Shown: piece by piece, positions 2,099 through 54,641 of the stretch | Layout of the letters: each line of letters starts with the position of its first letter | Numbering within the stretch: the stretch's first letter is position 1 | Assembly: GCA_018830005.1 (NCBI GenBank) | Contig: JAHJTE010000002.1 | Location: 73,517 to 137,516, forward strand | Length of the DNA: 64,000 nucleotides | Direction of reading: 5' to 3' | DNA from: Candidatus Omnitrophota bacterium | GTDB lineage: Bacteria > Omnitrophota > Gorgyraeia > JAHJTE01 | Made by a program: the position numbers and the translations under genes | The notes under the pieces: generated by a model | Seen by the model: only the letters and a program-made list of their open reading frames with translations | Databases searched by the model: none | What the model was told of the DNA's origin: nothing

Positions 2099-2389
2099 AT
2101 GAACATTGCTACAGATCTCGTAAAAGCGACACATATAGGAATCAGAGAATTAAAAGAACATCTATCCAGGGGAAATCTAGACAAACTATTGGTTATAACT
2201 GATAGGGGACAGCCTGTAAGTGTCAACTTGCCTTACGAAGACATCTTAGAATTGCTTGATTTACTTGATGAACTAAGTGATCCTGAAACAATAGCAACTA
2301 TCAAGAAAGGTAGAGCAGCAATAAAAGCTGGCGCTAAGGGCATACCAGTATCAAAACTATTTAAAAAACTAATAAAAAAGGCTGGATGA
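2099..2389 (+). CDS. Type II antitoxin, Phd/YefM-like
   Basis: 96 aa; acidic C-terminal tail (LLDLLDELSDPE); 4-nt ATGA overlap with downstream RelE-family toxin gene. Confidence 0.6.
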   Translation: MNIATDLVKATHIGIRELKEHLSRGNLDKLLVITDRGQPVSVNLPYEDILELLDLLDELSDPETIATIKKGRAAIKAGAKGIPVSKLFKKLIKKAG

Positions 2390-2688
2390 ACTACAAGGTT
2401 CGCTTTCCTAATAATTCTATCCAAAAGAGGCTTGAAAAAGTTCTATCAAAAATCCACAAAAGCCTCCAAAGCGAAATTATAGAAGCGATAGAGCACCTTG
2501 CTAATGACCCGCGTCCCTTTGGTAGAACTCCATTCAAGAAGCTAAGACCGCCTGTTCAATTCTATCAACTAACTGCTCAATATCGCATCAGAATAGAAAA
2601 CTACCGAGTACTTTACGATATAGATGATAAGAAAAAAATCGTATGGGTTCTTGCCTTGCGAAAAAGAAGCGAAACTACCTATAAATAA
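2386..2688 (+). CDS. Type II toxin, RelE/ParE family
   Basis: 100 aa; C-terminal signature YRIRIENYRVLYDIDDKKKIVWVLALRKR typical of RelE/ParE. Confidence 0.7.
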   Translation: MNYKVRFPNNSIQKRLEKVLSKIHKSLQSEIIEAIEHLANDPRPFGRTPFKKLRPPVQFYQLTAQYRIRIENYRVLYDIDDKKKIVWVLALRKRSETTYK

Positions 2689-6929: not shown

Positions 6930-6979
6930 TCATATCAAGGCGCTAAAATTTTTAGATTAGAAAATAGGTTGGACTTATA

Positions 6980-7969: not shown

Positions 7970-7971
7970 TG

Positions 7972-9402
7972 TTAGTTTCTACCCCTATCAGTAGCTTTGT
8001 TCGCCTCTAACAGACCGAACTTGCACATCTTTTTATAAAGTGTAGTTCTATTAATCCCTAATATCTTTGCTGCTTCGTTCCTGCTGCCTCCTACAGATGC
8101 AAGGACATTGACTATGATATCTTTCTCTGGATTAGCCAAGGCCTGCTTTAATTTCAATCTATCACCATTATCCCCGGAAACTGAAGCTGCCAACTTAGGC
8201 TTCTGCAAGTATTCAGGGAAATCATCCGGTGAGATTATCGTTTGTTTGCTTAAAATCACAGCCCTTTCTATTACATTCTCAAGCTCTCTGACGTTTCCTG
8301 GCCAAGGACAATTCGAAAGGACTGCTAGTGCTGCCCGGGAAAAGCCATCAATCTTTTTTCCCAGATGCTTTGAATGCTTCTTTATAAACTCATCAGCCAA
8401 TATTTCAATATCCTCTCTGCGATCCCGTAAAGGCGGAACCTCAATTGAGATAATATTCAAACGATAATATAGGTCCTGGCGGAATTTGCCCTGGGCTATT
8501 AATTCCTCTAGATTATGGTTTGTGGCAGCGATTACGCGCACATCTACTTTGATTGTATTGGTATCCCCTACCTTCTCAAGTTCACCCTCCTGCAACACTC
8601 TTAGTAACTTCACCTGAAGCGCAGGTGAAAATGCATCAATCTCATCTAAAAATATAGAGCCGCCATCAGCCAGCTCAAAACGGCCAATCCTATCTTTGAT
8701 TGCTCCGGTATAAGCGCCTTTTACATGGCCAAAAAGCTCACTTTCAAGCAATGTCTCGCTTAATGCACCGCAGCTAACCTCAACAAATGGCTTATTACGT
8801 TCTTTTTCGTTGTATTTATGAATAGCATGGGCAATCAGATGTTTTCCAGTTCCGCTTTCACCATGAATTAAAACCGTAGCCCTTGTTGTGGCAATCGCCT
8901 CAACGAGCGTATAAATCTTTTGCATCTTCAGGCTTTTACCAACGATGTCGTGAAAACGCTCTTTATGAGTAAGGGATAATTCTTCTTTTAATTTTATATT
9001 TTCATCAATTAGTCTACGCTGCTGCATTATACGTTCGATGATAATCTTGACTTCACTATCCACTATCGGCTTTGTTATATAATCATACGCACCGTTTTTC
9101 ATGGCCTCAACTGCATTTTCAATTGAACCAAAGCCAGTCATTAATATAACGGGGGTATCGGGTGAGATGATCTTTACATTCTTTAAAAGATGGACACCGT
9201 CCATTTTCGGCATCTTGATATCAGTAATGACTACATCCATAGTGTATTTCTTCAATAGCTCAAGCGCATCTTCGCTATTAGAGGCAGTACTTACAGTGTA
9301 GCCTGAGAGGGTCAATACCTCACTGAGTGAGCGCATTACCAAAGGCTCATCATCAACAACTAAGATATGCGTTCCGTTAGAATCTACTTTAGGTCTAAAC
9401 AT
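7972..9402 (-). CDS. Sigma-54-dependent response regulator (NtrC family; PrsR-like candidate)
   Basis: Receiver domain (VVDDEP...D); AAA+ sigma-54 interaction domain GESGTGKHLIAHAIH with GAYTGA; C-terminal Fis-type HTH. Confidence 0.9.
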   Translation of the reverse strand: MFRPKVDSNGTHILVVDDEPLVMRSLSEVLTLSGYTVSTASNSEDALELLKKYTMDVVITDIKMPKMDGVHLLKNVKIISPDTPVILMTGFGSIENAVEAMKNGAYDYITKPIVDSEVKIIIERIMQQRRLIDENIKLKEELSLTHKERFHDIVGKSLKMQKIYTLVEAIATTRATVLIHGESGTGKHLIAHAIHKYNEKERNKPFVEVSCGALSETLLESELFGHVKGAYTGAIKDRIGRFELADGGSIFLDEIDAFSPALQVKLLRVLQEGELEKVGDTNTIKVDVRVIAATNHNLEELIAQGKFRQDLYYRLNIISIEVPPLRDRREDIEILADEFIKKHSKHLGKKIDGFSRAALAVLSNCPWPGNVRELENVIERAVILSKQTIISPDDFPEYLQKPKLAASVSGDNGDRLKLKQALANPEKDIIVNVLASVGGSRNEAAKILGINRTTLYKKMCKFGLLEANKATDRGRN

Positions 9403-15480: not shown

Positions 15481-16101
15481 TTAAGGGATGTATTTAGCGA
15501 GCAAGGGACTAATCTCATTACTAAAGGACTTAAGTAGCTTAAAGGCCTCTTCCTTATCATTTGTCTTCAAGTCTGTTGAAATTCTAATCATTGCACCAGC
15601 AGTTCTTTTTCCCAACATGCGATCGATAACTATTTTCATCTGTTGCTTTATATAATTATCAGTATAAACATTTCCAGCCTTGAACCAATAAATATACATC
15701 TGTGGAATCTTCTCTTTTTCAACAATCAACTTCATTGCCTTAATAGGACTGGTTAGCTGGATAGAATCCTTCTCTACTATTGTCATTCCGCTGCCTAAGA
15801 GACAAATCTCAGGTGGATGACTTACCTTACGATTATCTTCTGAATAGATTAAATAAAGATACACAGATTGACCTTGTTTATTTTTATATTCTCTTACGAA
15901 GAGATTTCGTGTTTCTAAAATCGCATAGTCATTTTCAGAAATTGGAATGTCTGTTGATGTCCACTCACCAAATTCCTTTGGGAAATCAGATACCTTAATA
16001 TTTGAAGTAGCATCTGTTCTTGTTGGTAAATAAGAGGCAAGGCTCAAATAAACAACAAGGATTAGAATTAAAACTATGATAATGAAGTTTCTATTATTCA
16101 T
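15481..16101 (-). CDS. epsI: EpsI-family exosortase-associated protein
   Basis: N-terminal TM anchor; HPPEICLLGSG motif characteristic of EpsI; immediately downstream of exosortase. Confidence 0.7.
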   Translation of the reverse strand: MNNRNFIIIVLILILVVYLSLASYLPTRTDATSNIKVSDFPKEFGEWTSTDIPISENDYAILETRNLFVREYKNKQGQSVYLYLIYSEDNRKVSHPPEICLLGSGMTIVEKDSIQLTSPIKAMKLIVEKEKIPQMYIYWFKAGNVYTDNYIKQQMKIVIDRMLGKRTAGAMIRISTDLKTNDKEEAFKLLKSFSNEISPLLAKYIP

Positions 16102-16122: not shown

Positions 16123-16935
16123 TTATTTTAAGGTATTTTCTACAATCAATAGTCCAATAAATGCAAACACAAATACAAATAAACCCATTGCCGTATGGAA
16201 CATACCTGTTGCCCATTTAGCACCGTATATCTCACTAACTAAAGACAAAGAAACTATACGTATTACATTTGTAGAAATAGCAATTGGGATTGAAGAAGCA
16301 AACAAAATCATCCTTTTGGAACGAGAAAGATTGCTCAAGTATCCCATAAGTGCACCTAGGGCAATTAAGGCGATTAAACTTCTTATTCCTGAACATGGAT
16401 CCTCAACAATAAGATAAGAATTTGCTGTCTTTATAATGCTGCCCTCCCTTATTGCTCTAATGCCTAGATTATTTATGATAAATGTTGAAATCTTTGCAGC
16501 AAAGATCTTCAGCTGAAAGCTCAAATTTGCAATTGCAACCAAAGGCAGTGGAATCATAAATATTAAAAATGATATAGGGAAAAATAACTTTTTTAGATAG
16601 TCTTTACCAAAAAATAATAAAGCTATTCCAATAATAGTTAGGATTAGAGAAAATCCCGACGAGAAATATACCCTCCAAACTGCACTTATGAGATGGATTA
16701 ATAACCCTGCACCAAGAAATAACCAGCCCATATTTGAAGGATTAATCTTTATACTTTTTAATTTATCCCTCATCTGCCAAATAAGAAAGATGCTTATAAA
16801 TGGCACTAGAAAACCATGGTTGTAATAGCTATCCTTAGCATTCCACCTATCATACATCCAAATAAAGGTTGGAATGTAGGCGATAATTATTAAAGCTGCT
16901 AAGGTAGCTAGCTTAATCAAATCCTGCTTCTTCAT
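16123..16935 (-). CDS. Exosortase (XrtA-like transpeptidase)
   Basis: 8-TM protein; YNHGFLVP near N-terminus; catalytic-Cys context EDPCSGIRSL; conserved NVIRI Arg region. Confidence 0.75.
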   Translation of the reverse strand: MKKQDLIKLATLAALIIIAYIPTFIWMYDRWNAKDSYYNHGFLVPFISIFLIWQMRDKLKSIKINPSNMGWLFLGAGLLIHLISAVWRVYFSSGFSLILTIIGIALLFFGKDYLKKLFFPISFLIFMIPLPLVAIANLSFQLKIFAAKISTFIINNLGIRAIREGSIIKTANSYLIVEDPCSGIRSLIALIALGALMGYLSNLSRSKRMILFASSIPIAISTNVIRIVSLSLVSEIYGAKWATGMFHTAMGLFVFVFAFIGLLIVENTLK

Positions 16936-23415: not shown

Positions 23416-26400
23416 TCATTGATTTACCTTATCCTTCTTAATAAACTCAAAAGCCCCGATATCCGGGAATCCGTCACTCCGAAGATTATTATCATAATCA
23501 TTGGTGATGCTGTTAATAATAACACCGGCATCAATTGCCTTAGAATTCACTGTAAGCTTAAGACCACCGTCCGTAAAAGTATCATCGTTGGCAAATCCCG
23601 GCTCAGCAAACTTACTCCCCTTCTCTTGCTCTGGATAATCCACCTTTTTTAACCATGTTTTAAAATCAATATCATTCGCCCTAAACCATTTAGAGCCAAG
23701 ATGAAAGGGCTTTTTCTTACTGGAATGATACCAAAGGTTATGATCAAAAGACAAACCAAGAAAAGGCTCGCGTCTCCCTAATGGATCGGTCTTTATGTGT
23801 AGCAGATAAGTACTTGAATGCTTGGCAGAGACAATATTATTAAAAATGGAAACATTTTCATTGTTTCCACCATTATATGGAATCTTAATTCCTATAAAGT
23901 CTTCACCATTACCTTTTGCGTTCGGAAGGACAATGGTATTGTGGGCAATGAGAATATTTTTCATAGCGGAACCCCTAACGGCACCATAATGCGTTATTCC
24001 TCTGCGACAATTGACAATAATATTATTAGTAATCCTTATATTAGAGGTAACAGCTGGAGATTTTTCGTCGGCTGTCATGATACCCTCCGCTCTAAGACGC
24101 CGAAAACATTTTCCATCACGCGAGTTCTTGTCACCGTTGTTATATAAATCTCGCATATTAGGTTCATGACAGAAAATAAGATTCCCCTCGACAAGCACAT
24201 CTTTCCTCTTATTTATGTAGATATTGACGCTCCAATTATCAGAAACTATGTTATCTTTAATAATAGCGCCGTCCCCAGGCGCACCTATACCTTCACCGCC
24301 GTTTTGACTGATGATATTACCGATAATTTTTACATCTTTAGCATAAAAACCATCAATACCTTTACCCCAGCCACTGTCTTTCCATCTTCCTCTTGGCCAA
24401 TTACGCATGAAGTTATAATAAATGCGATTCTTAATAATTTCTGTGCCGTGGGAGACCTTTTTCCCATAATTAAACATGCTAATACCACTGTTACCGTTAA
24501 AGAGAATATTGCATCGTTCGATTCGGTTATGGTCGCCCAATATCTCAATGCCTTTGCCTCCGGCATACTTTATCGTTAAACCATAGAGCGTAACATACTG
24601 AGCCCCGCTTAAGAATATGGCATGCTGTTTTTTACTATCCTCAATAACCCCAACTTCAGAATCATTGGGGTTGGTTCCGTTTGGCGCGTAAACATAGAGA
24701 ACTTTTTCTTTCCAGCTGTAATACCATGTTTCTTCCTTTACATCCCTTAAGGAAAATTCTGGGAAAAGTGGCGTTTCATTAATAACAACAGCAACCGGTT
24801 TATCCAAACATTCGGTTTTATAGATATTTCGTTTATACGGTAACCATTTGCCGATATTCATCGATGCATCAATAACGACTTCCCCGTCTCCAAAAGGGCC
24901 AATCATTATTCGGTTCTCAGGGCTTCCCTTCTGGTAAATAGTAATTCGATTTATTTTATATCGACCGGATTTTATAAGAATTATGTCGCCCCCTTTTAAT
25001 TCTTTAAGGGCTCTCTCGATGGTTTTGAACGCATGATCTAGAGAATTACCGATGTTTCCATCATTTCCATTTTTCCCATCAACATAATAGTCTCTGCCGA
25101 TTGGAGTATGCGAAAAATCGTTATAAACACTAAGTGCTTTTGTGCCGCTGGAATTCCACCAACGACTATCGGTTTGCGCATATGCTGATGGAACAATAAA
25201 GAAAATAAATGCTATTACGCCGAGCAGGGCGACATTATGCCTTTTATTGTTTTTTCTATTCGACACTACCTGTTTCCCTTGGGCAACAAATCCTTTGCTA
25301 GCAGCTAATAACCCCAATATTATCCAAAAACTACCTACGACATTATCTCGGAAAAAATTAGAGTAAAATATGTTAACAACCATTAATGCCGTTAAACAGC
25401 CGATAAAACCTGCACCTAAATAATTAAATTCAGATTTTATTAGTGTTTTTGCTTCAAAGAATATGCACCATAACAACCACAAAAAGGCCAAAAGCCCCAA
25501 ACTGCCCATCTCCGCCATAATTTGAATAAAGCCATTGTGCGGATCAAAATTGCGCTCATAAGAAATCCGATAGTCCAACTGATTAAAGCCTATTCCCATT
25601 ATAGGATGTGCATAAAACAAATCCAATGCCACTTGCCATTTGAAAATGCGGCCTTGTGAACCTACATCAAGACTGGAAATATCAAGACTCTCTTCGGATT
25701 GCTGCTCATCGACCGTAACCGTGTCATCAATGCGATTAATGAGTGATTGAGGCATCCAATAGCGCCATTTTATTATTCCCAAGGAACCGACGATACACAG
25801 CATAACAATCAAAATTTTTGAGCGCTTCAAAAGAAATTTAAATGAAGAAAAAAACGTAATCGCGCTTCCGAGAATAATCGCGAGTAACGAACCTCTGGAA
25901 TAAGTAGACAACACGCCAGCAAAAATAGCAATAAATCCAATTCCACTAATCAACTTTAATATTTTCTGCTTAGCAAAAAGAAAATAAGAAAATAAAAAAG
26001 GGCCGAACATAGCTAAAAATGCTCCTGCGATATCCGAAGCCCTCCATGATTCACCGAAGGGACCAAATCCTCTTTTGTGGTCGGCAAAACTGGGCCCTTC
26101 CAATATTCCGGTGCGAAATGTATAAAAACCAATAATAGCAAGACTAATTAAAAAAACATTAAAAAGTAATCGCGATTCTTTTTTTGTCTTTACGCAGTAA
26201 GTAAAAACAAAATACCCGATTGGCAAAGTAATAAGCCTTTTAAAGTTCGTGGCTAGTACTATTACCGGCGTTCCCACGGATTGTATGGTTTGAAACACTG
26301 CATAAAAAAAAGACACTGTCCAAATAAACAAAAAAAAGAATAATGGAAGTTCAAATTTTGGACGTATCCTCAGGTGTTTTCTTCCGGAGATGAGCATTCC

Positions 26401-26508
26401 TAAAAAAATTACATTAAATATATCCACAATCGCTCCCACAGGAAGCTGCGGAATCTTAAGTCGAAACGGGAGATAAAACATATAAAGAATGAATATAAAA
26501 GTTTTCAT
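23416..26508 (-). CDS. Fusion: Wzy/O-antigen-ligase-like polytopic membrane domain + periplasmic right-handed parallel beta-helix domain
   Basis: N-terminal about 430 aa with more than 10 TM and Wzy_C signature HNGFIQIMAEMGSLGLL; C-terminal about 580 aa with YYVDGKNGNDGNIG...GDIILIKSGRY and repeated NxxxxN/G-rich beta-helix rungs. Confidence 0.65.
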   Translation of the reverse strand: MKTFIFILYMFYLPFRLKIPQLPVGAIVDIFNVIFLGMLISGRKHLRIRPKFELPLFFFLFIWTVSFFYAVFQTIQSVGTPVIVLATNFKRLITLPIGYFVFTYCVKTKKESRLLFNVFLISLAIIGFYTFRTGILEGPSFADHKRGFGPFGESWRASDIAGAFLAMFGPFLFSYFLFAKQKILKLISGIGFIAIFAGVLSTYSRGSLLAIILGSAITFFSSFKFLLKRSKILIVMLCIVGSLGIIKWRYWMPQSLINRIDDTVTVDEQQSEESLDISSLDVGSQGRIFKWQVALDLFYAHPIMGIGFNQLDYRISYERNFDPHNGFIQIMAEMGSLGLLAFLWLLWCIFFEAKTLIKSEFNYLGAGFIGCLTALMVVNIFYSNFFRDNVVGSFWIILGLLAASKGFVAQGKQVVSNRKNNKRHNVALLGVIAFIFFIVPSAYAQTDSRWWNSSGTKALSVYNDFSHTPIGRDYYVDGKNGNDGNIGNSLDHAFKTIERALKELKGGDIILIKSGRYKINRITIYQKGSPENRIMIGPFGDGEVVIDASMNIGKWLPYKRNIYKTECLDKPVAVVINETPLFPEFSLRDVKEETWYYSWKEKVLYVYAPNGTNPNDSEVGVIEDSKKQHAIFLSGAQYVTLYGLTIKYAGGKGIEILGDHNRIERCNILFNGNSGISMFNYGKKVSHGTEIIKNRIYYNFMRNWPRGRWKDSGWGKGIDGFYAKDVKIIGNIISQNGGEGIGAPGDGAIIKDNIVSDNWSVNIYINKRKDVLVEGNLIFCHEPNMRDLYNNGDKNSRDGKCFRRLRAEGIMTADEKSPAVTSNIRITNNIIVNCRRGITHYGAVRGSAMKNILIAHNTIVLPNAKGNGEDFIGIKIPYNGGNNENVSIFNNIVSAKHSSTYLLHIKTDPLGRREPFLGLSFDHNLWYHSSKKKPFHLGSKWFRANDIDFKTWLKKVDYPEQEKGSKFAEPGFANDDTFTDGGLKLTVNSKAIDAGVIINSITNDYDNNLRSDGFPDIGAFEFIKKDKVNQ

Positions 26509-32876: not shown

Positions 32877-34322
32877 TTACTGGGACAATACTAGCTTCTT
32901 CATTTCTATAATAAAGTTTCTTTCGATTCTGTGTAGCGAGTAAACATATACTGCTATAGCAAAAGAGAATAAGATTAAAAATCTTAATGAAATAAGCAAA
33001 TTATATGGCATAATAAAATTCTTAATCAAAATTAAACTTAATGCCATAATTAAAGATGAAATCAAGGCTGGTTTGAGGTTTAGGTAAACTTGTTTTAAAC
33101 CAAAATTCAATATTTTCATTTGAAAGCTTAAGCTAACAATAAAAGCAATAAAACTTGATGCTCCTACAACTATTCCTACTCCATTTATTCCAAATAATTT
33201 TGCCATAGGCACAATGAATATGAGAAAAATGGTTACCTGCATTGCAGTTATCCAAAAGACAATTTTTGGCTTACCACAAGCCAAAAAAACACCACCCAAA
33301 CCGGAAGATAGACTATTAAAAACACCTGCGACTGCTAAAATTTTTAAAACGCTTATTGCGCCTATCCACTTCTGTCCATAAACAAAGCTTAATAATTCTT
33401 CTGCCAAAAAAATTAGCCCTACTCCAAAAGGAAGGGCAATTAAACTAACATGCTTAAAAACTTTAAAGGATGCCCTTTTTAAATCATCTAAATTTCCTTG
33501 AAGTTTGGAATAAGCTGGAAAAATAACGCGCTGGACCTTCCCTCCAAAATAATCTCTAGCAAAATTAGCCAAATTAAAAGCGATTGCATATAGTCCTAAG
33601 GCAGCGACCCCCAAAAGCTTTCCCACTAAAAGATTATCTAAATTCATTTTTAAAAACCAAACTACTCCACCCAGAAAAAGGAACTTGCCGAAATGAAACA
33701 TTTCAAAGGCGATTTTCCTGTCAAATTCAAGTCTTGGATGCCATTTGCTAAAAACCCAAAACATTATATTTTGACAGAAAGTCTTTAATACATAAGCAAA
33801 CACTAAACTCCATATTCCTACCCCAGATATCGCCAAAATAATAGCAGTTATAGAATAAATAATTCCTGTGCTAATCTCAATCTTTGATATGTTTTTAAAC
33901 TGCATACTCTTCTCTAGCAGGGCTCTGGGAACATTTCCAAAACAACTGATAATAAAGATTACGCCTAAGGCTCTTACAACCCCCACTACTTCCTGATTAT
34001 TTAGGAATTTACCAATCACCGGTGCTGAAATTGCTAAAATCAGATATATGCTCACGCCCAACACGGGAATAATAAAAAAGGCAGTGTTTGCTGCCTTTTC
34101 TACATCGTCTTTTCTACGTATTAGTGCTGAATCAAAGCCCATGCTCTTAAATAGACCTAAGGTATCAATAGCTATAAAGGCAAGGGAAAATAAACCAAAA
34201 GTAGCTGGATTTAAAATTCGCGCTAAAACAATCGTTGTACCAAGAGAAATAATCCTACTAATAAAACTCAAACCCACAAGCCACTTTATTCCATTAACCG
34301 TTTGTTTCTTTAGGGAAGTCAT
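32877..34322 (-). CDS. Polysaccharide biosynthesis flippase (Wzx/MOP superfamily)
   Basis: About 12-14 TM; N-terminal KxxxxNxxW-type start typical of Polysacc_synt. Confidence 0.8.
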   Translation of the reverse strand: MTSLKKQTVNGIKWLVGLSFISRIISLGTTIVLARILNPATFGLFSLAFIAIDTLGLFKSMGFDSALIRRKDDVEKAANTAFFIIPVLGVSIYLILAISAPVIGKFLNNQEVVGVVRALGVIFIISCFGNVPRALLEKSMQFKNISKIEISTGIIYSITAIILAISGVGIWSLVFAYVLKTFCQNIMFWVFSKWHPRLEFDRKIAFEMFHFGKFLFLGGVVWFLKMNLDNLLVGKLLGVAALGLYAIAFNLANFARDYFGGKVQRVIFPAYSKLQGNLDDLKRASFKVFKHVSLIALPFGVGLIFLAEELLSFVYGQKWIGAISVLKILAVAGVFNSLSSGLGGVFLACGKPKIVFWITAMQVTIFLIFIVPMAKLFGINGVGIVVGASSFIAFIVSLSFQMKILNFGLKQVYLNLKPALISSLIMALSLILIKNFIMPYNLLISLRFLILFSFAIAVYVYSLHRIERNFIIEMKKLVLSQ

Positions 34323-36859: not shown

Positions 36860-37648
36860 TCAGAGGTAGCGATAAAGATACCCAGGTATATGATACTGAA
36901 GATTAGTAAGGATATATCCTAGAATCTTGGCTTGGGCCTGCCTTAACAACCCTTCCCCATGCTTAAGCACACCTTTCTGAGTTCTGTTTGTCTGCACTAC
37001 CATTATTACGCCATCAGTTTGAGCCCCTAGGAGACCAGCATCTGTTACTGGAATAATAGGTGGTGCATCAAAGATGATATAATCATACTTTGACTTGAGG
37101 ACTTTAATGAAGTTTTTTGACTGAGGTGAGCCCAGGAGTTCGGCAGGATTATGGGGGGATTTGCCTGACGGTAAAACGGTGAGATTAGCAATGCCTATAT
37201 CAACTAACGCATCATCTACATTTGCGCCATTGCTCAATAAATCTGAAAGTCCAACTTCCTCTTTAAATCCTAAATACTTGCTAATCCTTCCTCTGCGCAT
37301 ATCCGCATCTACCAGTATAATCTTTTTATTATGCAGATCATGTGCCATGGAGATTGCTAAGTTTATGGCAGTAATTGTCTTTCCTTCTCCATGAGTAGAG
37401 CTGGTAATAGTAATCGCCTTAATCGGGTACTTTGAATCAATTGCCTGGATATTAGTGCGAAGTTTCTTATATTGCTCTGCCACAGATGAAGATGGTTCGT
37501 GTAAACTTACGATCCTAGGGTCGATCTTTGAATCAAGGCGTTTTTTGACTACAAACTCAAACTTCATGCCTGCTTTTTCCTCAAACTTTTCAATCTTTTG
37601 CAGTCTTTCTTCAGCTGCCTTTTTTAATGCATTGGTGATTTTACCCAT
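36860..37648 (-). CDS. Exopolysaccharide tyrosine autokinase (BY-kinase, cytoplasmic catalytic subunit)
   Basis: Walker A HGEGKTITAINLA, Walker A' DADMRRG, C-terminal Tyr cluster YHIPGYLYRYL. Confidence 0.75.
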   Translation of the reverse strand: MGKITNALKKAAEERLQKIEKFEEKAGMKFEFVVKKRLDSKIDPRIVSLHEPSSSVAEQYKKLRTNIQAIDSKYPIKAITITSSTHGEGKTITAINLAISMAHDLHNKKIILVDADMRRGRISKYLGFKEEVGLSDLLSNGANVDDALVDIGIANLTVLPSGKSPHNPAELLGSPQSKNFIKVLKSKYDYIIFDAPPIIPVTDAGLLGAQTDGVIMVVQTNRTQKGVLKHGEGLLRQAQAKILGYILTNLQYHIPGYLYRYL

Positions 37649-38477: not shown

Positions 38478-39794
38478 CTAGCTTCTAAAGAAAGCCATAA
38501 ACATTGAAATGATAATAAGCAATGCGCTGACTACTAAACCAATAATAATTATCATCTTTTTCTTTCTTTTTTCCTTATCAATCTCTTCCTGGGTAGTAAG
38601 CCGGGAAATCGCTCCTAATATAGGGAGCTCTAAATTACTTTTTGCATCTTCTATATCCAGGAAAGACTTATCCATAAATTCCCTGCCTAAGACCAGACCA
38701 GTACCAGCCATACCTCCAAAGAAAAGACCTAAGAATATAACTAGTATTTTCTTAGGCTTAGAAGGCTGTAAGGGTAATCTGGGAGGGTCTAAAATAGTAT
38801 AACGAGTCCCTTCTTTTGATACTTCCAGGCGCTGGGTAATCTTTGCAGTTTCAAGCTTTTGTAAGAGCATATTGTAAATATTCTCATTTACTCTTATATC
38901 CCGGGCTAAGACAGAGTCAATCTTATCCATTAACAGCAATTTATAAATAGAGTCTCTTGCGCTTTCGCCCTCATTAGCAGCATCATTGGAAGCATAAGCT
39001 GTTGCGCCAATTGAAGACAAGCTATCTCCTGTAACCTTGTCTATCTCTTCTTTTAAAGCCTCATATACTGGATTTGTTACTGGCTTCTCAATATCTCCTA
39101 CCTCGTATCCTCCAGAATTAAGCTCCTGATTTAGGGCCTGTATTTTCTGCCTTAAGTCCTTAACCATGGGGTGCTGTTCAGTAGAATCACCGAGAAGCTT
39201 CTTAAGCTGATCTTCTAATGATGCAATCTCTGTTTCCTTTATCTTTCTCTTATAGATCCTTAGCTGGTCTTTAATAAATTCTATGGCTACATCTGTTTCT
39301 TTACTCTGGGACTGAACGTTCTTTTCAATAAATACATCAGTTATAGTCTTTGCAATAAGCTGGGTCTCTTCAGGTTCTTTGCCAAAATAAGCTAATCTTA
39401 TAATATTAGGTCCACGCATCTGAACTAGGATATTATTTCTTAAGCTTTTTATAAGATTTTCATATTCTAACTGGTTTTTTACATTCTTTGCTAAATCCAG
39501 CTTTTTAGCTAACTCTACCAGACTGCTCCAGCTTAATATCTGCTCCCGTAGGGTGCGCATCCTCTGTGCAACTGAAGTAGATACAGCCAGGCCTTGAATT
39601 AAAGGATTAATAATCTTCTCTTCCTCAACCAAAATCACAGTTGAAGATTCATATGTTGGCGGTAAAGTAAAGGCAAGAGTAATGCTTATCACCAACCCCG
39701 CAAATATCGGAGTTATAAACAGCCATTTTCTTCTAAAGAGTATCTTTAGATAATCTGCCGGGTTTCTTTGTTTAGCGTTTTCATAATTTTCCAT
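38478..39794 (-). CDS. Polysaccharide chain-length determinant (Wzz-like)
   Basis: N- and C-terminal TM helices flanking coiled-coil periplasmic region. Confidence 0.7.
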   Translation of the reverse strand: MENYENAKQRNPADYLKILFRRKWLFITPIFAGLVISITLAFTLPPTYESSTVILVEEEKIINPLIQGLAVSTSVAQRMRTLREQILSWSSLVELAKKLDLAKNVKNQLEYENLIKSLRNNILVQMRGPNIIRLAYFGKEPEETQLIAKTITDVFIEKNVQSQSKETDVAIEFIKDQLRIYKRKIKETEIASLEDQLKKLLGDSTEQHPMVKDLRQKIQALNQELNSGGYEVGDIEKPVTNPVYEALKEEIDKVTGDSLSSIGATAYASNDAANEGESARDSIYKLLLMDKIDSVLARDIRVNENIYNMLLQKLETAKITQRLEVSKEGTRYTILDPPRLPLQPSKPKKILVIFLGLFFGGMAGTGLVLGREFMDKSFLDIEDAKSNLELPILGAISRLTTQEEIDKEKRKKKMIIIIGLVVSALLIIISMFMAFFRS

Positions 39795-39808: not shown

Positions 39809-40633
39809 TTATGGGGTCATGGTTGTTGCTGAACGAACACCAGAAGCAGCTGTTCCAACTGGTGCAACAACCGGATTAATTACTCTCATAATCTTTGCCA
39901 TTACCGTAGCCGGAACGTAAAATACATCACCCGGTTTCATCTCTATATTCTTTTTTAGTTCTCCACCGTAAAGGATCGAATACAAATCAACCTTCTTTTT
40001 CTTTCCCTTGCCGTTTTCAGAAGGGGTTATCAACTCGCATTTACGCATAGCAGCAGCTAAGGTAGGCAGACCTGCCTGAACTACAGCCTCTCTTACGGGT
40101 ATATTCTCTGAGCGCATATAATATTTCCCAGGTCTTGCTACCTCTCCAAGTACATAGATAACCTTGCTTTTATAATCTAAAATGGTTATGTTTATTTCAG
40201 GGCTTATGATGAAATTAGCAACAAGCTCCTTAATTTTTTCTTCCAGCTCCTTTTTGGTAAGACCTGTAACCTCTATATCTCCTACAAATTTATACTGTAT
40301 CTTTCCTTCTAGATTTATAGGATAAACTCCGCTAAACTCGGGGTGGCGCATTACAGTTATCTCTACCACATCCTCAGGTCCTAATGTGTATTTTAATGGA
40401 TCAAAGTAGTTGGCATTAGCAGGAATTGAACTAGCAAAATCTAAGGCTGGAACACTGGCTGCTTGACTGTCCTTAGGTATCACCTCAACAGCTCGCATGG
40501 TCCTGCCATCCTTGGAGATGATCTCTGTTGCCCTTATGGTCTTGTCCTGGGCAAATGCCGGAACTAAAAACAGACCAATTACTAAAACAATAGTAAAAAT
40601 CTTAATTATCTTATTCATCGCCATCCTCCCCAA
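39809..40633 (-). CDS. Polysaccharide export protein (Wza-like, Poly_export + SLBB)
   Basis: Signal peptide; ...KFVGDIEVTGLTKKELEEKIK... and YVLGEVARPGKY; probable start at internal Met around 40618. Confidence 0.8.
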   Translation of the reverse strand: MGRMAMNKIIKIFTIVLVIGLFLVPAFAQDKTIRATEIISKDGRTMRAVEVIPKDSQAASVPALDFASSIPANANYFDPLKYTLGPEDVVEITVMRHPEFSGVYPINLEGKIQYKFVGDIEVTGLTKKELEEKIKELVANFIISPEINITILDYKSKVIYVLGEVARPGKYYMRSENIPVREAVVQAGLPTLAAAMRKCELITPSENGKGKKKKVDLYSILYGGELKKNIEMKPGDVFYVPATVMAKIMRVINPVVAPVGTAASGVRSATTMTP

Positions 40634-49119: not shown

Positions 49120-49431
49120 CTATTTTTTGAAGAAATTTTCTGCCTGAGAGCGGTCTGAGGCATGCTTAAAATCAGCATAGTCAATAAGCTCTAATTCCGG
49201 CCGCATCTGCCCTATTCGCTTTATAAGATGAGGAGGAAATCTTCCCTGATTTTGGCGGGTAGCAATAAATTTAAACTCGGAGTTGCATTCTGGACACTTT
49301 TTAGCCTTTAGGTAATCTATTCCTATTGCTCTGCAGTTTGCACAATCGGCACTCAACTGGCCAACAATAACAAGATGTTCCTTTACTTCATTAATATCAA
49401 AATGTTTCCATACCCTTAGTCGAACACGCAT
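49120..49431 (-). CDS. Zinc-ribbon protein of unknown function
   Basis: CANC...CPEC pairs. Confidence 0.3.
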   Translation of the reverse strand: MRVRLRVWKHFDINEVKEHLVIVGQLSADCANCRAIGIDYLKAKKCPECNSEFKFIATRQNQGRFPPHLIKRIGQMRPELELIDYADFKHASDRSQAENFFKK

Positions 49432-49476: not shown

Positions 49477-50004
49477 TTAGACTAGTTTATAAACTCTATC
49501 CTGTATGCGAACCCGCTTTGAAACCTTCAGGCCCACCTCATCTCCTTTTACTGCTGTCTGTATGGAGACATGGTTTATTTGGATAGATTTAACGCGCTGT
49601 TTGAGATTTGTAGTAGAGCCGATAATCCTAATAGTATCTCCAACCTTTAAATTTCCACTGGTTACAGTAAGAACACAAACTGATATCTGCGGAAAAAAGT
49701 GAGTAATAACTCCAATCAGCTCTTCTCTAGCTGTCTGGATATATGTTTGCTTCTTAGTTACCTTAACCCTTACTATTTTCTTTTTTCTTGGTTTCTTTGG
49801 CCTGGACTTGCGAGAGACTAATTTAGATTTTAACTTTTTTCTTTTCTTGAGAGGGGATTTTTTCTTTAATCTAACTTTTTTTCTAGCTGTTTTCCTTTTG
49901 GTTTTAATTTTCTTCACGGTAACCATTGTTTTTGGTTCCATGCTTTGCTTTATTCTTTTGATAAGGCCGAAAATCATTTTTCTTCCTATTTGAACCTCTC
50001 CCAA
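49477..50004 (-). CDS. Lys/Arg-rich N-terminal tail + IF2-C2/EF-Tu-domain-2-like beta-barrel protein
   Basis: About 70-aa K/R-rich low-complexity region; C-terminal GVITHFF...NLKVGDTIRI...VKGDEVGLKV resembles translation-factor beta-barrel. Confidence 0.3.
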   Translation of the reverse strand: MGEVQIGRKMIFGLIKRIKQSMEPKTMVTVKKIKTKRKTARKKVRLKKKSPLKKRKKLKSKLVSRKSRPKKPRKKKIVRVKVTKKQTYIQTAREELIGVITHFFPQISVCVLTVTSGNLKVGDTIRIIGSTTNLKQRVKSIQINHVSIQTAVKGDEVGLKVSKRVRIQDRVYKLV

Positions 50005-50483
50005 TGGACTAGATGATCTAAAGATTTTTTGGGTGCAATTTCGTTCTTCTCTTTCGAATATCCCAAGGCGATCATACTCACTAACTTATATTTATAAGGC
50101 ACTTTTAGGATATCCAGGACATTTACACAATAGTCTTTCTTATCTCCTGCTACCCAACAGGCTGCGAGCCCAAGATCAACAGCCGCAAGCAGTAAATTCT
50201 GCGTTGCAGCAGAGCCATCCTCAAGATAATACTTAGTATCCTCAGATACTATCGCAATGCAAACCGGAGCATCTTTGATAAAATTACCATTGGGAGCTAG
50301 ATCAGAGATTTTCTTTTTGGTCTGTTTATCTGTTATCACAATAAATTGCCAGGCCTGAATATTCCTTGCAGTAGGCGCAAAACGGGCACAATCCAGCAAT
50401 TCTTTAATTATATCCTTAGAAACAGCTCTTGATTCAAATGTCCTTATACTTCTTCTCTTTTTGATCGTCTGAATGGTTTCCAT
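49986..50483 (-). CDS. Nitroreductase-family protein
   Basis: KKRRSIRTF...FAPTARNIQAWQFIV. Confidence 0.7.
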   Translation of the reverse strand: METIQTIKKRRSIRTFESRAVSKDIIKELLDCARFAPTARNIQAWQFIVITDKQTKKKISDLAPNGNFIKDAPVCIAIVSEDTKYYLEDGSAATQNLLLAAVDLGLAACWVAGDKKDYCVNVLDILKVPYKYKLVSMIALGYSKEKNEIAPKKSLDHLVHWERFK

Positions 50484-50499: not shown

Positions 50500-51570
50500 C
50501 TATCTTAAATCTAACAACGAATCAATTTCGCCAAAATGATTCTTTTCACTTACTGGGTTATTGGGATCTTCGCACCATTTCCCATCAACAACAAAGCGAT
50601 AGCGATAGCGGCCGGGTTTCAGGTTTAGGTGTTTTTTCCAAATGCCGTTTTCTTCTTTAGTAAACATTGACTTCTTATTTGGCGACCATTGATTAAAATC
50701 ACCTGCTAAATAAACCTCCTTTGCCTCAGGTGCATGAAGTCTGAACTCTGCCTTAATAAAGCGCTCTATTTCCTTCTTAATTACCTCTTTAACATCATCA
50801 AGACGTACATCACTAGCTTCGGCTGCGCTTATGATTTCCCGCGCCAGAGAAAAGTAATCTTTGCTGCCTCGGCAGTATTTATTGAAATCAAAAACAGCAA
50901 CACCGCTATTTGCTGCTTCTTTCAGCTTAACATTGACATGGATAATGCTGTTGAATATCTTTTCTTTAAATTTCTCGCTTATGTCTGCAAGCATATTATG
51001 CGAATATTGTAATCGAGAATCAAACATCGTAACCAAGACCTTGAAGTCTACGGTGTGTTTTAGACGCTGACGAATCAACTCAGCAATACATAGAAGCCGA
51101 TCTAAGCCTTCAAATGAAAAACGACTCATCTCTACAGGAATAATAAGCTCATCAGAAGAACAAATCGCATTAACAGTTAATATACCAAGATTAGGAGGAC
51201 AATCCATAATACAGTAGTCATAATCATCTATTTCTGAAAGTGCTGCCTTAAGCCGGCCCTCGCGGCCTATTTCAGTTGACATCTCCTGCTCAAGTGTACT
51301 CATAAGCAGACTAGAAGGTGCGATAGAAAAATTATTCTTAACTTTTAAAACAACCTCTTTTATCTTCAATTTTGGCTTGGAAAAATTACTTAAACAATCA
51401 TACATACTCTTCTCGCTCTCTATACCTAAGCCTATGCTGGCATGCGCTTGAGGGTCTAAATCAATCAACAGGGTCTTTTTGTTGTTCATAGAAAGCGCTG
51501 CAGCTAAATTAATAGCTGTTGTTGTCTTGCCGCAGCCGCCTTTTTGATTTGTAATGGAAATTATTTTCAT
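50500..51570 (-). CDS. ParA/MinD-family ATPase fused to C-terminal CBM48 (AMPK-beta / glycogen-binding) domain
   Basis: Deviant Walker A KGGCGKTT; C-terminal VYLAGDFNQW...GIWKKHLNLKPGRYRYRFVVDGKWCEDPNNP. Confidence 0.7.
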   Translation of the reverse strand: MKIISITNQKGGCGKTTTAINLAAALSMNNKKTLLIDLDPQAHASIGLGIESEKSMYDCLSNFSKPKLKIKEVVLKVKNNFSIAPSSLLMSTLEQEMSTEIGREGRLKAALSEIDDYDYCIMDCPPNLGILTVNAICSSDELIIPVEMSRFSFEGLDRLLCIAELIRQRLKHTVDFKVLVTMFDSRLQYSHNMLADISEKFKEKIFNSIIHVNVKLKEAANSGVAVFDFNKYCRGSKDYFSLAREIISAAEASDVRLDDVKEVIKKEIERFIKAEFRLHAPEAKEVYLAGDFNQWSPNKKSMFTKEENGIWKKHLNLKPGRYRYRFVVDGKWCEDPNNPVSEKNHFGEIDSLLDLR

Positions 51571-52160
51571 TCTTTTTTAGTAAATTTGATTTTATCTATA
51601 AATATACGCCCTTGTTCTTTTTCAATATTCCAGCCCTCGACAATAAAACTAATACCGCTAAGGTCAGAGAAGCTCTTCAGCTCAGAGATCTCAAGCGGAA
51701 TCTTGAATGTCTTCCAGCGTGATTCTATGCCTCTAATATAAATTGATTTCTTCTCGCGGCGCGAACTCTCAAGGCCCACCTTAATCAAGCTGCTAAATCC
51801 TTCTTGCGGATCACCCCGCAGGGCAAACTCCAATACATCATAATCAACCAAATTTATCTTAGGTAAATCAAGACTAATGCTCTTTATCTTTTCATGAGTC
51901 TGGGAAAAGTTATAATTAAGCTTTAGAGGCAGGATATTAGCCAAAACCGAAAGGCTCTTTTTTTGCGCCTTAACAGTGTTGGCTTTCTTAAAAATATTCC
52001 CTGAAAATAACAAGACGCCAATAAGGACAATAAGACTTACAATGCCGATACCGATAAAGAGATTGGGTCTATTTTTAGAATTAATGTTGCCTCTTGAAAC
52101 CTCTTCCCTTCTTGTAAAATAGGTGTCAGCAATTCGATTGTAAAGGTGTGTATATTTCAT
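51567..52160 (-). CDS. Single-pass membrane protein, translationally coupled to ParA-CBM48 gene
   Basis: TM helix LFIGIGIVSLIVLIGVLLF; stop overlaps ParA start (ATGA). Confidence 0.35.
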   Translation of the reverse strand: MKYTHLYNRIADTYFTRREEVSRGNINSKNRPNLFIGIGIVSLIVLIGVLLFSGNIFKKANTVKAQKKSLSVLANILPLKLNYNFSQTHEKIKSISLDLPKINLVDYDVLEFALRGDPQEGFSSLIKVGLESSRREKKSIYIRGIESRWKTFKIPLEISELKSFSDLSGISFIVEGWNIEKEQGRIFIDKIKFTKKE

Positions 52161-52304: not shown

Positions 52305-53672
52305 TTAGAAGGAAACCTTCATTGAACCAACAGCCTGACTTGCTGTAGAGTTAGTTGAACTATCAAATGCATTACCAGGTATAAATGCACCTAGCTTCAG
52401 ACCGAACTGTACATCTTCCGTATAGTCATAAAGCAAACTTAGATCGATTTCCTGACCTACAAAAGATTTATCAGTCAAGTCTACGCTCTGTGGCAATGTT
52501 TCATGATTAGTTGCAGTTAAAGTACTGTCAAAACCATATGCCTCAGCCCACCAGTATAAATAGCCGCCAAGTTCTACATTGATGTCATCAGCAAGTTCTG
52601 CAGTGGCAACTAAACCAGCGAGGTGAATATTGGTCTGATCCAATAGAGCACAAGCAATATCACCAAATGTCTGATTTTCATACAATGGATCCCATGCATG
52701 GTAACTAGGATGTTCTGCGTTTACTGGATCCCAACCATCATCATTACCGCTAAAGTATGCATAAAGAGCAGTCAGAGTTGGAGAATATCTTACTTCTGGC
52801 CAAGCATAAGTAGCAGCTGTTTCAATAGCTACTGCTTCTCTATCAACTGTCCTATCATCCCTATCAACAGCAACATCATTTATGTAGGTACCAAGCTGAT
52901 AAGCGCCTTCTAAGCTGTAAGTCAAATTTTCAATCGGATGAGTTACAACTCTTGCACCAAAGACCTGCGTTGCTTCACCATTTCTAATCTCAGCAGAAAC
53001 CTCTGTATCTTTAATTCGATCATAGAAATAAGCTTCTAAGATTGAACTCCAATCATCACCTAAATCATAATTAGCTGAAATACCATATAGAGTCTGATCA
53101 TCAGCAGCGCCAGCAGTAGTTTCAGCAATCTTTGCATAGAGTAAATCAACAATTAAAGGCGAATAATCTAGGGTTGCTCTCATAGCATCAAATGCTTTTT
53201 GCTTGCTTAAATCTGGCTGGGTAGTTGCAACTGTAGTTGTTACTGCACTATTGTTATCATCAGGATCACCAACAATCATTTCAGAACCCATATGAAGTTC
53301 CTGACGACCTAGCGTTAACGTTAAAGGAGAATATAAAAACTCCTTTAAAGTTACGTAAGCCAAATCAAGCTGGATATCTTCTGCATCTGTTGCGTCAGTA
53401 TCCCATTCTCTTTCGTTAAGGAGCCTGGCTGTAACTGAAACATTGTCAGTTAAATCAGCATTAATCCCTAACCTCAAAAATCCCAGAATAGCACGTTCTT
53501 GGTTATCAGTAGCGGTTTGAGATTGAGTAACCAAATCCCAGCAATCACGAGCCAAAGGTACAATCTCTAGATCACCGCTTACTTTTACGTTCTGGACAGC
53601 AGCAAATGCCGGAGTAGCAATAAATGCTACAACTGCGGCTGCTAGCAGAACTAGTGTTAAGCGTTTACTCAT
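52305..53672 (-). CDS. Outer-membrane beta-barrel porin-like protein
   Basis: Signal peptide ...ATPAFA; alternating beta-strand pattern; C-terminal ...SMKVSF (terminal Phe). Confidence 0.5.
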   Translation of the reverse strand: MSKRLTLVLLAAAVVAFIATPAFAAVQNVKVSGDLEIVPLARDCWDLVTQSQTATDNQERAILGFLRLGINADLTDNVSVTARLLNEREWDTDATDAEDIQLDLAYVTLKEFLYSPLTLTLGRQELHMGSEMIVGDPDDNNSAVTTTVATTQPDLSKQKAFDAMRATLDYSPLIVDLLYAKIAETTAGAADDQTLYGISANYDLGDDWSSILEAYFYDRIKDTEVSAEIRNGEATQVFGARVVTHPIENLTYSLEGAYQLGTYINDVAVDRDDRTVDREAVAIETAATYAWPEVRYSPTLTALYAYFSGNDDGWDPVNAEHPSYHAWDPLYENQTFGDIACALLDQTNIHLAGLVATAELADDINVELGGYLYWWAEAYGFDSTLTATNHETLPQSVDLTDKSFVGQEIDLSLLYDYTEDVQFGLKLGAFIPGNAFDSSTNSTASQAVGSMKVSF

Positions 53673-53869
53673 TTGTTTTTCCTCCTTAAGGAACATTTAA
53701 TTTTATATAATGAACAGCTAGATCTTTTTCTAGCAACGTTGTTTCACTTATATGTATATCATCAGACTTTTTGATAACCTTTGGGCGTCTTTTTCCTCAC
53801 GCTCCTTTCTGCCCAGATTTAAAGCCATCACTGATGGTATAACCTATATAACTAGTTATATCTAAAGTA

Positions 53870-54550: not shown

Positions 54551-54626
54551 TTATAGATTATGCGCCTGGGTGGATTCGAACCACCCCAAGACGGGCCTTA
54601 GGAGAGCCCCGCTCTATCCAAATGAG
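54551..54626 (-). tRNA. tRNA-Arg (anticodon CCU)
   Basis: Minus strand GCGCCUG-UA-GCUC...GAGC-G-GGGCU-CUCCUAA-GGCCC-(GUCUUGG)-GGUGG-UUCGAAU-CCACC-CAGGCGC-A; cloverleaf with UUCGAAU T-loop; CCA not encoded; apparent 7-nt variable region. Confidence 0.8.
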
Positions 54627-54641
54627 CTACAGGCGCTTTTT

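Follow-up and report, generated by a model that had tools for sequence, protein, structure and literature searches.

Why would a bacterium end a ParA-type ATPase in a domain of the glycogen-binding kind? ParA/MinD ATPases are a general bacterial means of placing chromosomes, plasmids, carboxysomes and chemoreceptor arrays, and we know of no ParA/MinD positioning system for glycogen. The question is raised by two overlapping genes in a stretch of 64,000 nucleotides from a Candidatus Omnitrophota bacterium (contig JAHJTE010000002.1, positions 73,517 to 137,516), which is called here, at its whole length, the window. One gene encodes ParA-CBM48, a Soj-like ATPase joined to a C-terminal carbohydrate-binding module of family 48 (CBM48) that resembles the module of the beta subunit of AMP-activated protein kinase (AMPK). 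The gene directly upstream encodes a membrane protein of 197 amino acids (aa), TM197. The architecture and its conservation are solid, and from them we derive a well-motivated proposal, to which we give somewhat less than an even chance: that ParA-CBM48, switched by ATP, tethers or positions the glycogen of the cytoplasm, either on the nucleoid or at some place on the envelope.

The fusion protein and its distribution

The two genes and the parts of the fusion protein are located in the window as follows (ORF, open reading frame; AF2, AlphaFold2; pLDDT, predicted local distance difference test).

50500..51570, minus strand: ParA-CBM48 gene, 356 aa plus stop (ORF; Pfam AAA_31, CbiA, AMPK1_CBM and CBM_48)
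50815..51570, minus strand: Soj/ParA-type ATPase core, residues 1-252 (phmmer against PDB, Foldseek, residue conservation)
50758..50814, minus strand: variable linker, residues 253-271, which includes a short helix (poorly conserved and of varying length in the alignment; AF2 helix 257-269)
50503..50757, minus strand: AMPK-beta-type CBM48 beta-sandwich, residues 272-356 (AMPK1_CBM, CBM_48, alignment to 1z0n, pLDDT above 90)
51567..52160, minus strand: TM197 gene, 197-aa single-pass membrane protein (ORF; its stop overlaps the ParA start in ATGA)

An original prediction, made from the letters of this DNA alone, had placed both reading frames at these coordinates and on this strand, and the ORF list and the sequence agree with it, including the stop/start overlap, which is read at 51567-51570 in the context ...AAAGA-ATGA-AAATA. 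The same prediction had considered that the fusion might be an artefact of assembly. This is ruled out by the identical protein on three independent contigs, together with the full-length fusion in every relative examined. The identical 356-aa protein is also on record in a Candidatus Omnitrophica metagenome-assembled genome (MAG). The 120 best database relatives, without exception, have lengths of 351-385 aa, cover the whole query and contain AMPK1_CBM. A scan of one genome per species gave at least 585 confirmed relatives, and the locus comparisons below use the best 80 of them. The complete gene ends in the CBM in 78 of these 80 loci, each from a separate species-level genome, and in two contigs of this genome; the other two hits stop at a contig end.

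Most carriers of ParA-CBM48 are labelled Omnitrophota and some 'uncultured Planctomycetales' or 'Planctomycetia'. Relatives with 38-46% identity share this architecture and come from MAGs under the labels Myxococcota, 'delta proteobacterium', Eisenbacteria, Margulisiibacteriota, Auribacter, Phycisphaerae and Thermodesulfobacteriota. In databases these proteins have no more specific names than 'AAA family ATPase', 'chromosome partitioning protein' or 'hypothetical protein'.

A Soj-like ATPase core

The deviant Walker A motif KGGCGKTT and the C-terminal motif are present as the original prediction quoted them, and the ParA/MinD core that it recognized was confirmed by Pfam models AAA_31 (175.3 bits) and CbiA (73.6 bits) over residues 1-224 of the 356-aa protein. 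Based on phmmer searches against PDB, the nearest solved proteins are ParA 8ray (E 2e-47), Soj of T. thermophilus 1wcv (E 1e-36) and Soj of H. pylori 6iub (E 2e-34). When the AF2 model (mean pLDDT 81.6) was used as a Foldseek query, the top matches were again Soj/ParA proteins, with E values of 2.5e-22 to 1e-19, template modelling scores of 0.82-0.85 normalised to the target and 33-38% identity; McdA, BcsQ, MinD and FleN also matched the fold, well behind them. The signature lysine K10, Walker A K15 and T16, the aspartates D37 and D39 and Walker B D123 were conserved in 78 of 78 loci, a set partly retrieved by the pattern QKGGCGKT. The same invariance of catalytic residues, including the unusual Cys13, was found in 27 database relatives that had not been retrieved by this pattern. 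The codon of Cys13 lies at 51532-51534 on the minus strand; Soj and MinD have Val at that place, and the Cys is invariant in every relative examined.

The patch through which Soj of Bacillus subtilis (BsSoj) binds DNA non-specifically consists of R189, K201, R215 and R218, and the nucleoid-binding role of R189 and R218 has reportedly been validated by mutagenesis (PMC6393308). We mapped these residues onto ParA-CBM48 through the phmmer alignment to PDB. BsSoj R189 corresponds to R186, which is R in 77 of 78 loci, and R218 to K215, which is K or R in 65 of 78. K201 corresponds to position 198, with K or R in 68 of 78 loci and S in the window protein, and R215 to position 212, where V or I stands and no basic residue. 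Because the catalytic residues and R186/K215 are conserved, the core looks catalytically competent and plausibly nucleoid-binding, with its putative DNA-binding patch only partly kept.

We looked for a ParB partner by its motif. None of the ORFs in the window, and none in 82 loci taken together with their 10-kb flanks, contains GERRxRA (the search did not extend to parS), and because of this ParA-CBM48 appears to be an orphan ParA. Its relation to chromosomal Soj admits a first alternative explanation, in which the protein would be a nucleoid-associated regulator of segregation or division, similar to Soj, MipZ or PomZ, that is tuned by glycogen load, the CBM48 serving as a sensor of energy status as in AMPK beta and not as a handle for cargo. 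The 33-38% identity to chromosomal Soj/ParA and the conserved residues with a reported nucleoid-binding role speak for this alternative, as does the housekeeping-like spread of the gene, which is very widespread in the phylum. The missing GERRxRA-bearing ParB within 10 kb in the 82 loci speaks against it; its remaining evidence depends on the neighbours and is given with them.

ParA-CBM48 was compared with four known kinds of system, of which one is not supported and three were rejected. A canonical parAB (ParABS) locus is not supported, given the lack of a ParB motif at any locus and the NCBIfam ParA_partition equivalog score, 99 bits against a cut-off of 180. For MinD, the C-terminus is a beta-sandwich, the NCBIfam minD models gave 65-67 bits against cut-offs above 200 and no minC or minE was located in the neighbourhood. 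For a bacterial tyrosine kinase (BY-kinase), the C-terminal tyrosine cluster is missing, and pepcterm_TyrKin scored 43 against 231 and eps_fam 35 against 108 (NCBIfam). For BcsQ, cellulose_yhjQ scored 66 against a cut-off of 158, identity to solved BcsQ is about 15% and there are no bcs genes nearby.

An AMPK-type CBM48 domain

The C-terminal domain had been assigned to CBM48 by motif, and profile searches support the assignment over residues 274-349: AMPK1_CBM scored 50.0 bits against a curated cut-off of 26.8 (residues 282-349) and CBM_48 36.5 bits against 22.4 (Pfam). The best match of the C-terminal 95 residues among solved structures is 1z0n (E 8e-11), the AMPK beta-1 CBM crystallised with cyclodextrin, and the next matches are the N-domains of GlgB, pullulanase and neopullulanase. 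The domain was modelled at pLDDT above 90 (AF2).

In AMPK beta-1 the sugar is reportedly contacted by W100, K126, W133, L146 and N150, and W100 and W133 are its sugar-stacking tryptophans. In the alignment to 1z0n these five residues correspond to W295, R325, W332, F346 and D350, the putative sugar-binding residues of ParA-CBM48. Across the 80 loci, which span several phyla, positions 295 and 332 are W and position 347 is G in 80 of 80; position 350 is N or D in all 80, position 346 is F or Y in 68, and position 325 is R in 40, K in 23 and Q in 17. A search with the domain alone in 1.84 billion representative proteins gave 10,810 relatives, headed by proteins with 3-18 tandem CBM48 copies; these dominate the top 150, so that ParA fusions are not countable there. 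Of ten tandem-copy proteins scanned, two include the catalytic domain of a GH13 alpha-amylase, and pullulanase domains are present as well in one of these. Taken together, the evidence on the C-terminal domain fits an alpha-glucan-binding module.

The tandem AMPK-type CBM48 proteins include P0255 (1812 aa), P0261 (6207 aa), P0312 (5025 aa) and many of about 480 aa. This last class, with four copies and without other recognisable domain, is abundant.

A second alternative is that the beta-sandwich has the CBM48 fold and serves as a protein-protein module or a module for another ligand, binding no alpha-glucan, and that the neighbourhood described below reflects phylogenetic inertia. E-set and CBM48-like folds are reused in roles other than glucan binding; for instance, the NCBIfam plug model of the type IX secretion system matches the same region, with 30 bits, below its cut-off. 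The variation R/K/Q at position 325 and the replacement of AMPK L146 by F or Y would also agree with this alternative, and no glycogen genes are found in the window (Pfam listings covering about 0.8-41 kb and 42.6-61.6 kb). Against these points stand W295, W332, G347 and N/D 350, conserved without exception across several phyla, and the closest domain relatives, which include modules on GH13 amylases and pullulanases.

Conserved neighbours of ParA-CBM48

Based on profile searches, a TM197-family gene is located directly upstream of ParA-CBM48 and on the same strand in 59 of the 80 loci, with gaps of -80 to 228 nucleotides, mostly 10-50. In a divergent clade, with a ParA identity of 40-46%, the upstream protein has 236-304 aa and matches TM197 at the profile level only (hhalign probability 97%, E 4e-11), and the other neighbours differ. 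Since the pairing is kept in this clade with the other neighbours changed, it is unlikely to be mere inherited synteny. The suggestion that the membrane protein is a partner of the ATPase is thus strengthened by the adjacency. That the two genes form a two-gene module holds as far as the conserved pairing goes; the pair probably sits in a longer transcription unit with downstream genes.

In the main clade the gene order is sigma-70, APRT, PHP, Alginate_exp porin, [GH57], TM197, ParA-CBM48, [108-aa membrane protein] and a Lys-rich protein with EF-Tu domain 2 (EF-Tu-D2 protein), where the brackets mark genes that are not in all loci. The Alginate_exp-family gene is upstream in 39 loci. Of the 46 loci with an EF-Tu-D2 gene, 45 have it downstream of ParA-CBM48 in the same orientation; in the divergent clade it is not found beside ParA-CBM48. 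The 108-aa protein, a multi-pass membrane protein with the motif YHAKQGL and no family match (for instance L001:11120-11446), lies between ParA-CBM48 and the EF-Tu-D2 gene there and in 31 other loci and is absent from the window.

The bracketed family 57 glycoside hydrolase (GH57) is amylopullulanase-like and adjoins the pair upstream in 30 loci; it is absent in this window. It scored 222 bits on Pfam Glyco_hydro_57, and its best PDB match is the amylopullulanase of Aquifex aeolicus (E 3e-81), which cuts alpha-1,4 and alpha-1,6 bonds. GH57 genes occur in two further, unrelated arrangements: two genes upstream in locus L056, and convergent downstream in locus L059. In L059 a stand-alone 101-aa CBM48 of the ParA-fusion type (6337-6642, minus strand; HMM E 2.6e-28) adjoins the GH57 gene (6676-8253, minus strand), both near ParA-CBM48. 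In a Pfam census of 145 neighbour ORFs from 30 divergent loci no family was dominant. Omnitrophota MAGs have been reported to encode glycogen synthesis (PMC8542988). This report and the GH57 neighbours lend indirect support to alpha-glucan metabolism in the genome of the window.

These neighbours bear on both alternatives given so far. The association of GH57 in three independent arrangements and the TM197 adjacency, which persists in a clade where every other neighbour changed, count against a module that binds something other than alpha-glucan, and we consider that explanation quite improbable. GH57 adjacency likewise points to glucan handling and not to division, which detracts from the glycogen-tuned regulator; mnmG/gidA, on the other hand, neighbours the gene in two divergent loci, as it does at many chromosomal parAB loci.

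The membrane protein TM197

No Pfam or NCBIfam model matched TM197. Its family has at least 1004 members, every one annotated as hypothetical. The following parts were recognized.

52116..52151, minus strand: N-terminal helix motif, residues 4-15 (LYNRIADTYF), conserved, predicted cytoplasmic, proposed ParA-contact peptide
51993..52070, minus strand: transmembrane helix, residues 31-56 (AF2 helix; hydrophobic maximum; family-level positive-inside bias)
51579..51956, minus strand: beta-jelly-roll CBM-like domain, residues 69-194, predicted extracytoplasmic

The AF2 model (pLDDT 81) shows an N-terminal helix at 4-15 (low confidence), a disordered basic stretch, the hydrophobic helix 31-56 and a confident beta-sandwich at 69-194. 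A single strongly hydrophobic segment, residues 34-52, agrees with the single-pass protein that had been predicted. The predicted orientation with the N-terminus inside is supported at the level of the family, in which K+R averages 6.4 on the N-side of the helix and 2.5 on its C-side, and 45 of 49 homologues have the higher number on the N-side; the charge bias of the window protein alone, 3 against 4, is ambiguous as to topology because a basic segment follows the membrane helix. Such an unusually basic segment directly after the helix marks the distinct subclade formed by the window protein and its closest relatives, which is 21-29% identical to the main Omnitrophota TM197 group.

Among 49 homologues the invariant residues of the N-terminal helix are Y7, A11 and Y14, and the alignment gives E136, Y141, W149, F172, E175, W177, N178, G184 and D189 as invariants of the sandwich. 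The N-terminal motif is also seen in the divergent c16 clade, and its variants include HLAKIYLD, RIADTYFT, QLADIYFS and HVADTYFY. The C-terminal domain had no significant sequence-family match (in a single distant homologue CBM30 scored 19 bits, which is under the cut-off); from its modelled structure it is predicted to be a beta-jelly-roll similar to CBM8, CBM11 and CBM30, and by the predicted orientation it would face outward. The pair is thereby predicted to join a cytoplasmic alpha-glucan module to a CBM-like module outside the membrane.

This predicted topology is an argument for a third alternative, namely that the pair organises an envelope polysaccharide machine in the manner of BcsQ or CapA/CapB, localising or gating synthesis, export or uptake, with the CBM48 holding a cytoplasmic glucan primer or substrate. 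ParA/MinD-like ATPases with membrane adaptors are known in polysaccharide systems such as these, the Alginate_exp-family outer-membrane barrel is conserved upstream in the 39 loci mentioned, and ParA-CBM48 matches Pfam CBP_BcsQ with 33.7 bits besides matching the fold of solved BcsQ structures. Yet the conserved set includes no glycosyltransferase, synthase, flippase or ABC transporter, and the porin is a separate transcription unit. The tyrosine-kinase and BcsQ scores on NCBIfam are far under their cut-offs, with no tyrosine cluster, and the ATPase is much closer in identity to chromosomal Soj (33-38%) than to BcsQ (about 15%). The window does hold an exopolysaccharide/exosortase locus, about 9 kb away, but this has an AAA_31 ATPase of its own. 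In our view an envelope machine is unlikely.

A possible second type of partner in loci without TM197

Profile searches detected no TM197 in about 21 loci, of which most lie outside Omnitrophota. In at least 10 of these 21 the gene directly downstream encodes a protein of 270-330 aa with a degenerate MinD/ParA-like fold (CbiA 19 bits), at these positions of the respective loci:

L057: 9126-10058
L058: 11128-12045
L059: 4476-5462
L074: 3339-4277
L070: 11186-12031
L072: 11096-11950
L077: 11179-12033
L064: 11129-12061
L076: 4705-5511
L080: 5536-6462

The next gene often encodes a 190-230-aa protein with a weak NucS_C match, and the two together look like an alternative set of partners. The N-terminus of the downstream MinD/ParA-like protein takes two forms, one represented by KKLGKGLEDISYLFLS, KKLGRGLEDFSHLFLS or RKLGRGLSDVSHIFLS, and the other, in MAGs labelled Myxococcota, by MPRDLADVLHYFLPE or MTRDLGDVLHYFIPE; the peptides follow the patterns KLGRGLxDxSxLFLS or RDLxDVxxYFLP. 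The LGRGL...L part presumably resembles the N-terminal ParA-stimulating peptide of ParB/Spo0J. A ParB-like peptide on a downstream neighbour fits a ParA that works with a peptide-presenting partner, and the N-terminal motif of TM197, predicted to be cytoplasmic, looks related to it. Each lineage may thus have a partner of its own for ParA-CBM48, dedicated to it and offering it a peptide at the N-terminus.

The partners also complete the case of the glycogen-tuned regulator. A coupling of glycogen to division is made plausible by E. coli, where glycogen condensates are reportedly passive and polar, displace the nucleoid, shift the division site and are inherited unequally (PMC12706056). As conserved partner one finds here either a membrane protein or a MinD-like protein of degenerate type, and not ParB, an FtsZ-related protein or a PomXY-like one. 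Such a regulator seems to us improbable; if it existed, it would be a bacterial parallel to the glycogen sensing of AMPK beta.

A proposed role in glycogen placement

The domain identities are established, and so are the pairing of the genes, the repeated presence of GH57 beside them and the conservation of residues for catalysis, DNA binding and sugar binding. From these we infer glycogen binding, nucleoid binding, a contact between ParA and TM197, and a cellular role as a glycogen tether or positioner. In this proposal the Soj-like ATPase would dimerise on ATP, and its C-terminal CBM48 would attach it to cytoplasmic alpha-glucan (glycogen). The ATP-bound dimer would present two CBM48 modules and, because the binding would then be bivalent, would hold glycogen more tightly; the same dimer would present a basic Soj-type surface for the nucleoid. 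In this way glycogen particles could be tethered to the nucleoid and spread out along it, or else be kept at a place on the envelope; each daughter cell would then receive some of them, and they would be accessible to degrading enzymes. TM197 would be the dedicated partner, whose N-terminal peptide would make contact with the ATPase, to recruit it or else to set off hydrolysis, and whose outward CBM-like domain would fix the system at the envelope or inform it there.

This tether model explains the fusion itself, the conserved tryptophans and catalytic residues, the nucleoid-binding residues, the GH57 neighbour and the peptide-bearing partners. Several observations weigh against it. The model leaves the partner's CBM-like domain, predicted to be outward-facing, unexplained, and a purely cytoplasmic partition of granules neither needs nor accounts for such a domain. 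Of the four positions that bind DNA in Soj, two are not kept basic, position 212 and, in the window protein, position 198. Modules of the CBM48 fold also have regulatory or protein-binding roles. Over the portions of the 64-kb window covered by the Pfam listings there is no glycogen gene, and here the GH57 neighbour is absent as well; the census of 145 neighbour ORFs from the 30 divergent loci included GH57 only twice and no glgA, glgB, glgC or glgP. Finally, the synteny within Omnitrophota may partly reflect shared ancestry.

A stronger form of the tether model is that ParA-CBM48 and its partner are a dedicated, phylum-wide, ATP-driven system for glycogen positioning or partition, the first for a storage inclusion made of polysaccharide, with the handle built into the ATPase and the activating peptide supplied by a transmembrane protein. 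We advance this form only tentatively, as rather less than probable. The passive condensates of E. coli raise the question whether other bacteria control glycogen placement actively, and ParA-CBM48 is a concrete, testable candidate, present in at least 78 species-level genomes and several phyla and repeatedly beside an alpha-glucan hydrolase. If it does tether glycogen, it would represent a new coupling of ParA to cargo, by fusion and not by an adaptor; its partner, which spans the membrane and has an ectodomain similar to a CBM, would likewise be of a new kind. It would also give a function to two large families now named 'AAA family ATPase' and 'hypothetical protein'. If it works as a positioning machine, two features would be new for the ParA/MinD family, namely dimerisation as an avidity switch for glycogen and an activating peptide on a transmembrane protein, and the outward CBM-like domain would link the handling of granules to an extracellular glycan or to the condition of the envelope.

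Probable transcription unit and surroundings in the window

The following features surround the gene pair; the terminator and promoter calls are consensus matches only.

52305..53696, minus strand: Alginate_exp-family outer-membrane beta-barrel (porin), a separate unit (Pfam Alginate_exp, 95 bits)
52282-52251, minus strand: intrinsic terminator of the porin gene, between porin and TM197 (13-bp stem, 7 GC pairs, T-run)
52265-52220, minus strand: promoter-like hexamers ahead of TM197, two sites, each matching 9 of 12 positions
49986-50483, minus strand: nitroreductase (ORF, Pfam)
49477-50004, minus strand: Lys-rich EF-Tu-D2 protein (ORF, Pfam)
49120-49431, minus strand: 103-aa Cys-rich protein (ORF)
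48909-48887, minus strand: terminator-like hairpin probably ending the unit (9-bp stem, 6 GC pairs, T-run)

No terminator-like site of comparable strength was located between ParA-CBM48 and 48909. Because the next strong terminator lies only at 48909-48887, the transcription unit probably includes the three downstream genes and would run from TM197 through ParA-CBM48, the nitroreductase and the EF-Tu-D2 protein to the 103-aa protein. This longer probable operon was overlooked in the original prediction, as were the CBM-like domain on the membrane protein and the different partner in other phyla. The EF-Tu-D2 protein has a Lys-rich N-terminus similar to a histone tail, followed by the beta-barrel of EF-Tu domain 2, and could be a nucleoid-associated protein or an alternative partner. 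As an McdB-like partner it ranks below TM197, because it is missing beside ParA-CBM48 in the divergent clade where TM197 persists.

A role in anti-phage defence was considered and rejected, as none of the five operon proteins had a meaningful PADLOC match. Upstream of the unit no riboswitch or small RNA was detected; the sole Rfam match was below threshold and coincides with the porin terminator. A tRNA gene is located at 54561-54636 on the minus strand, between the APRT and PHP genes (Rfam, 53 bits).

The exopolysaccharide locus is of the PEP-CTERM/exosortase type, occupies about 12000-41000 of the window on the minus strand and has no apparent link to the pair. It encodes the exosortase EpsH (16123-16935) and EpsI (15481-16101), three small PEP-CTERM proteins, Bac_transf, several GT2 and GT4 glycosyltransferases, a 1030-aa protein with Wzy_C and a beta-helix (23416-26508), a Polysacc_synt flippase (32877-34322), its own AAA_31 ATPase (36860-37648), Wzz/GNVR (38478-39794) and Poly_export (39809-40633). 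The left end of the window holds a ParE-family toxin with a small upstream partner, a LAGLIDADG_3 ORF, sigma-54 and a sigma-54-dependent response regulator with a GAF histidine kinase, within the segments at about 2386-2688 (plus strand), 4145-5026 (minus strand), 5544-6929 (plus strand) and 7972-9402 (minus strand).

Comparison with known systems

The original prediction did not recognise the pair as a described system, and our search of the literature gave the same answer: neither a ParA-CBM48 protein nor an active glycogen-positioning system was found described. Each part can nevertheless be placed beside known proteins. With chromosomal Soj/ParA (B. subtilis Soj, 1wcv/2bek, 6iub, 8ray) ParA-CBM48 shares the fold, 33-38% identity, the deviant Walker A, the catalytic aspartates and the equivalents of R189 and R218; it differs in the additional CBM48, the lack of a detected ParB within 10 kb, the other partners and the invariant Walker A Cys. 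The CBM48 itself compares best with the AMPK beta CBM (1z0n, 1z0m, 2f15), both tryptophans and most sugar contacts being kept, whereas K126 is replaced by R/K/Q, L146 by F/Y and N150 by N/D, and the module stands on a P-loop ATPase instead of a kinase scaffold.

MinD also matches the fold, and there ATP-driven dimerisation doubles a C-terminal surface-binding element, as in the avidity switch proposed here; unlike MinD, ParA-CBM48 has no C-terminal amphipathic helix for membrane targeting and no MinC or MinE in its neighbourhood. BcsQ and the BY-kinase pairs of the CapA/CapB type are similar in that an ATPase of the ParA/MinD fold and a membrane adaptor are encoded by adjacent genes and belong to the components of envelope polysaccharide systems. 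They are set apart by the identity of about 15% to BcsQ, by a conserved set without bcs, cap or wz genes and by the lack of a tyrosine cluster. The TM197 domain, predicted to be a jelly-roll like those of CBM11, CBM30 and CBM8, differs from them in being carried by a membrane anchor and not by an enzyme, with no significant sequence-family match.

In the problem to be solved, the placement of a storage inclusion relative to the nucleoid and its inheritance, the closest cases are PhaM of polyhydroxybutyrate granules, which is not known to be a ParA, and the glycogen condensates of E. coli. The latter are reportedly placed passively and inherited asymmetrically (PMC12706056). Among cargo-positioning ParA/MinD proteins, McdA with McdB shows the greatest likeness: an orphan ATPase stands beside a small dedicated partner, McdA matches the fold (6non/6nop), and a positioning of cargo on the nucleoid would be common to both. 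The differences are that here the cargo module is fused to the ATPase, the partner is anchored in the membrane and the cargo would be a polysaccharide particle in place of a protein shell. By this analogy, the mode of action of ParA-CBM48 would be nearest to that of McdA and other orphan ParA proteins that position cargo.

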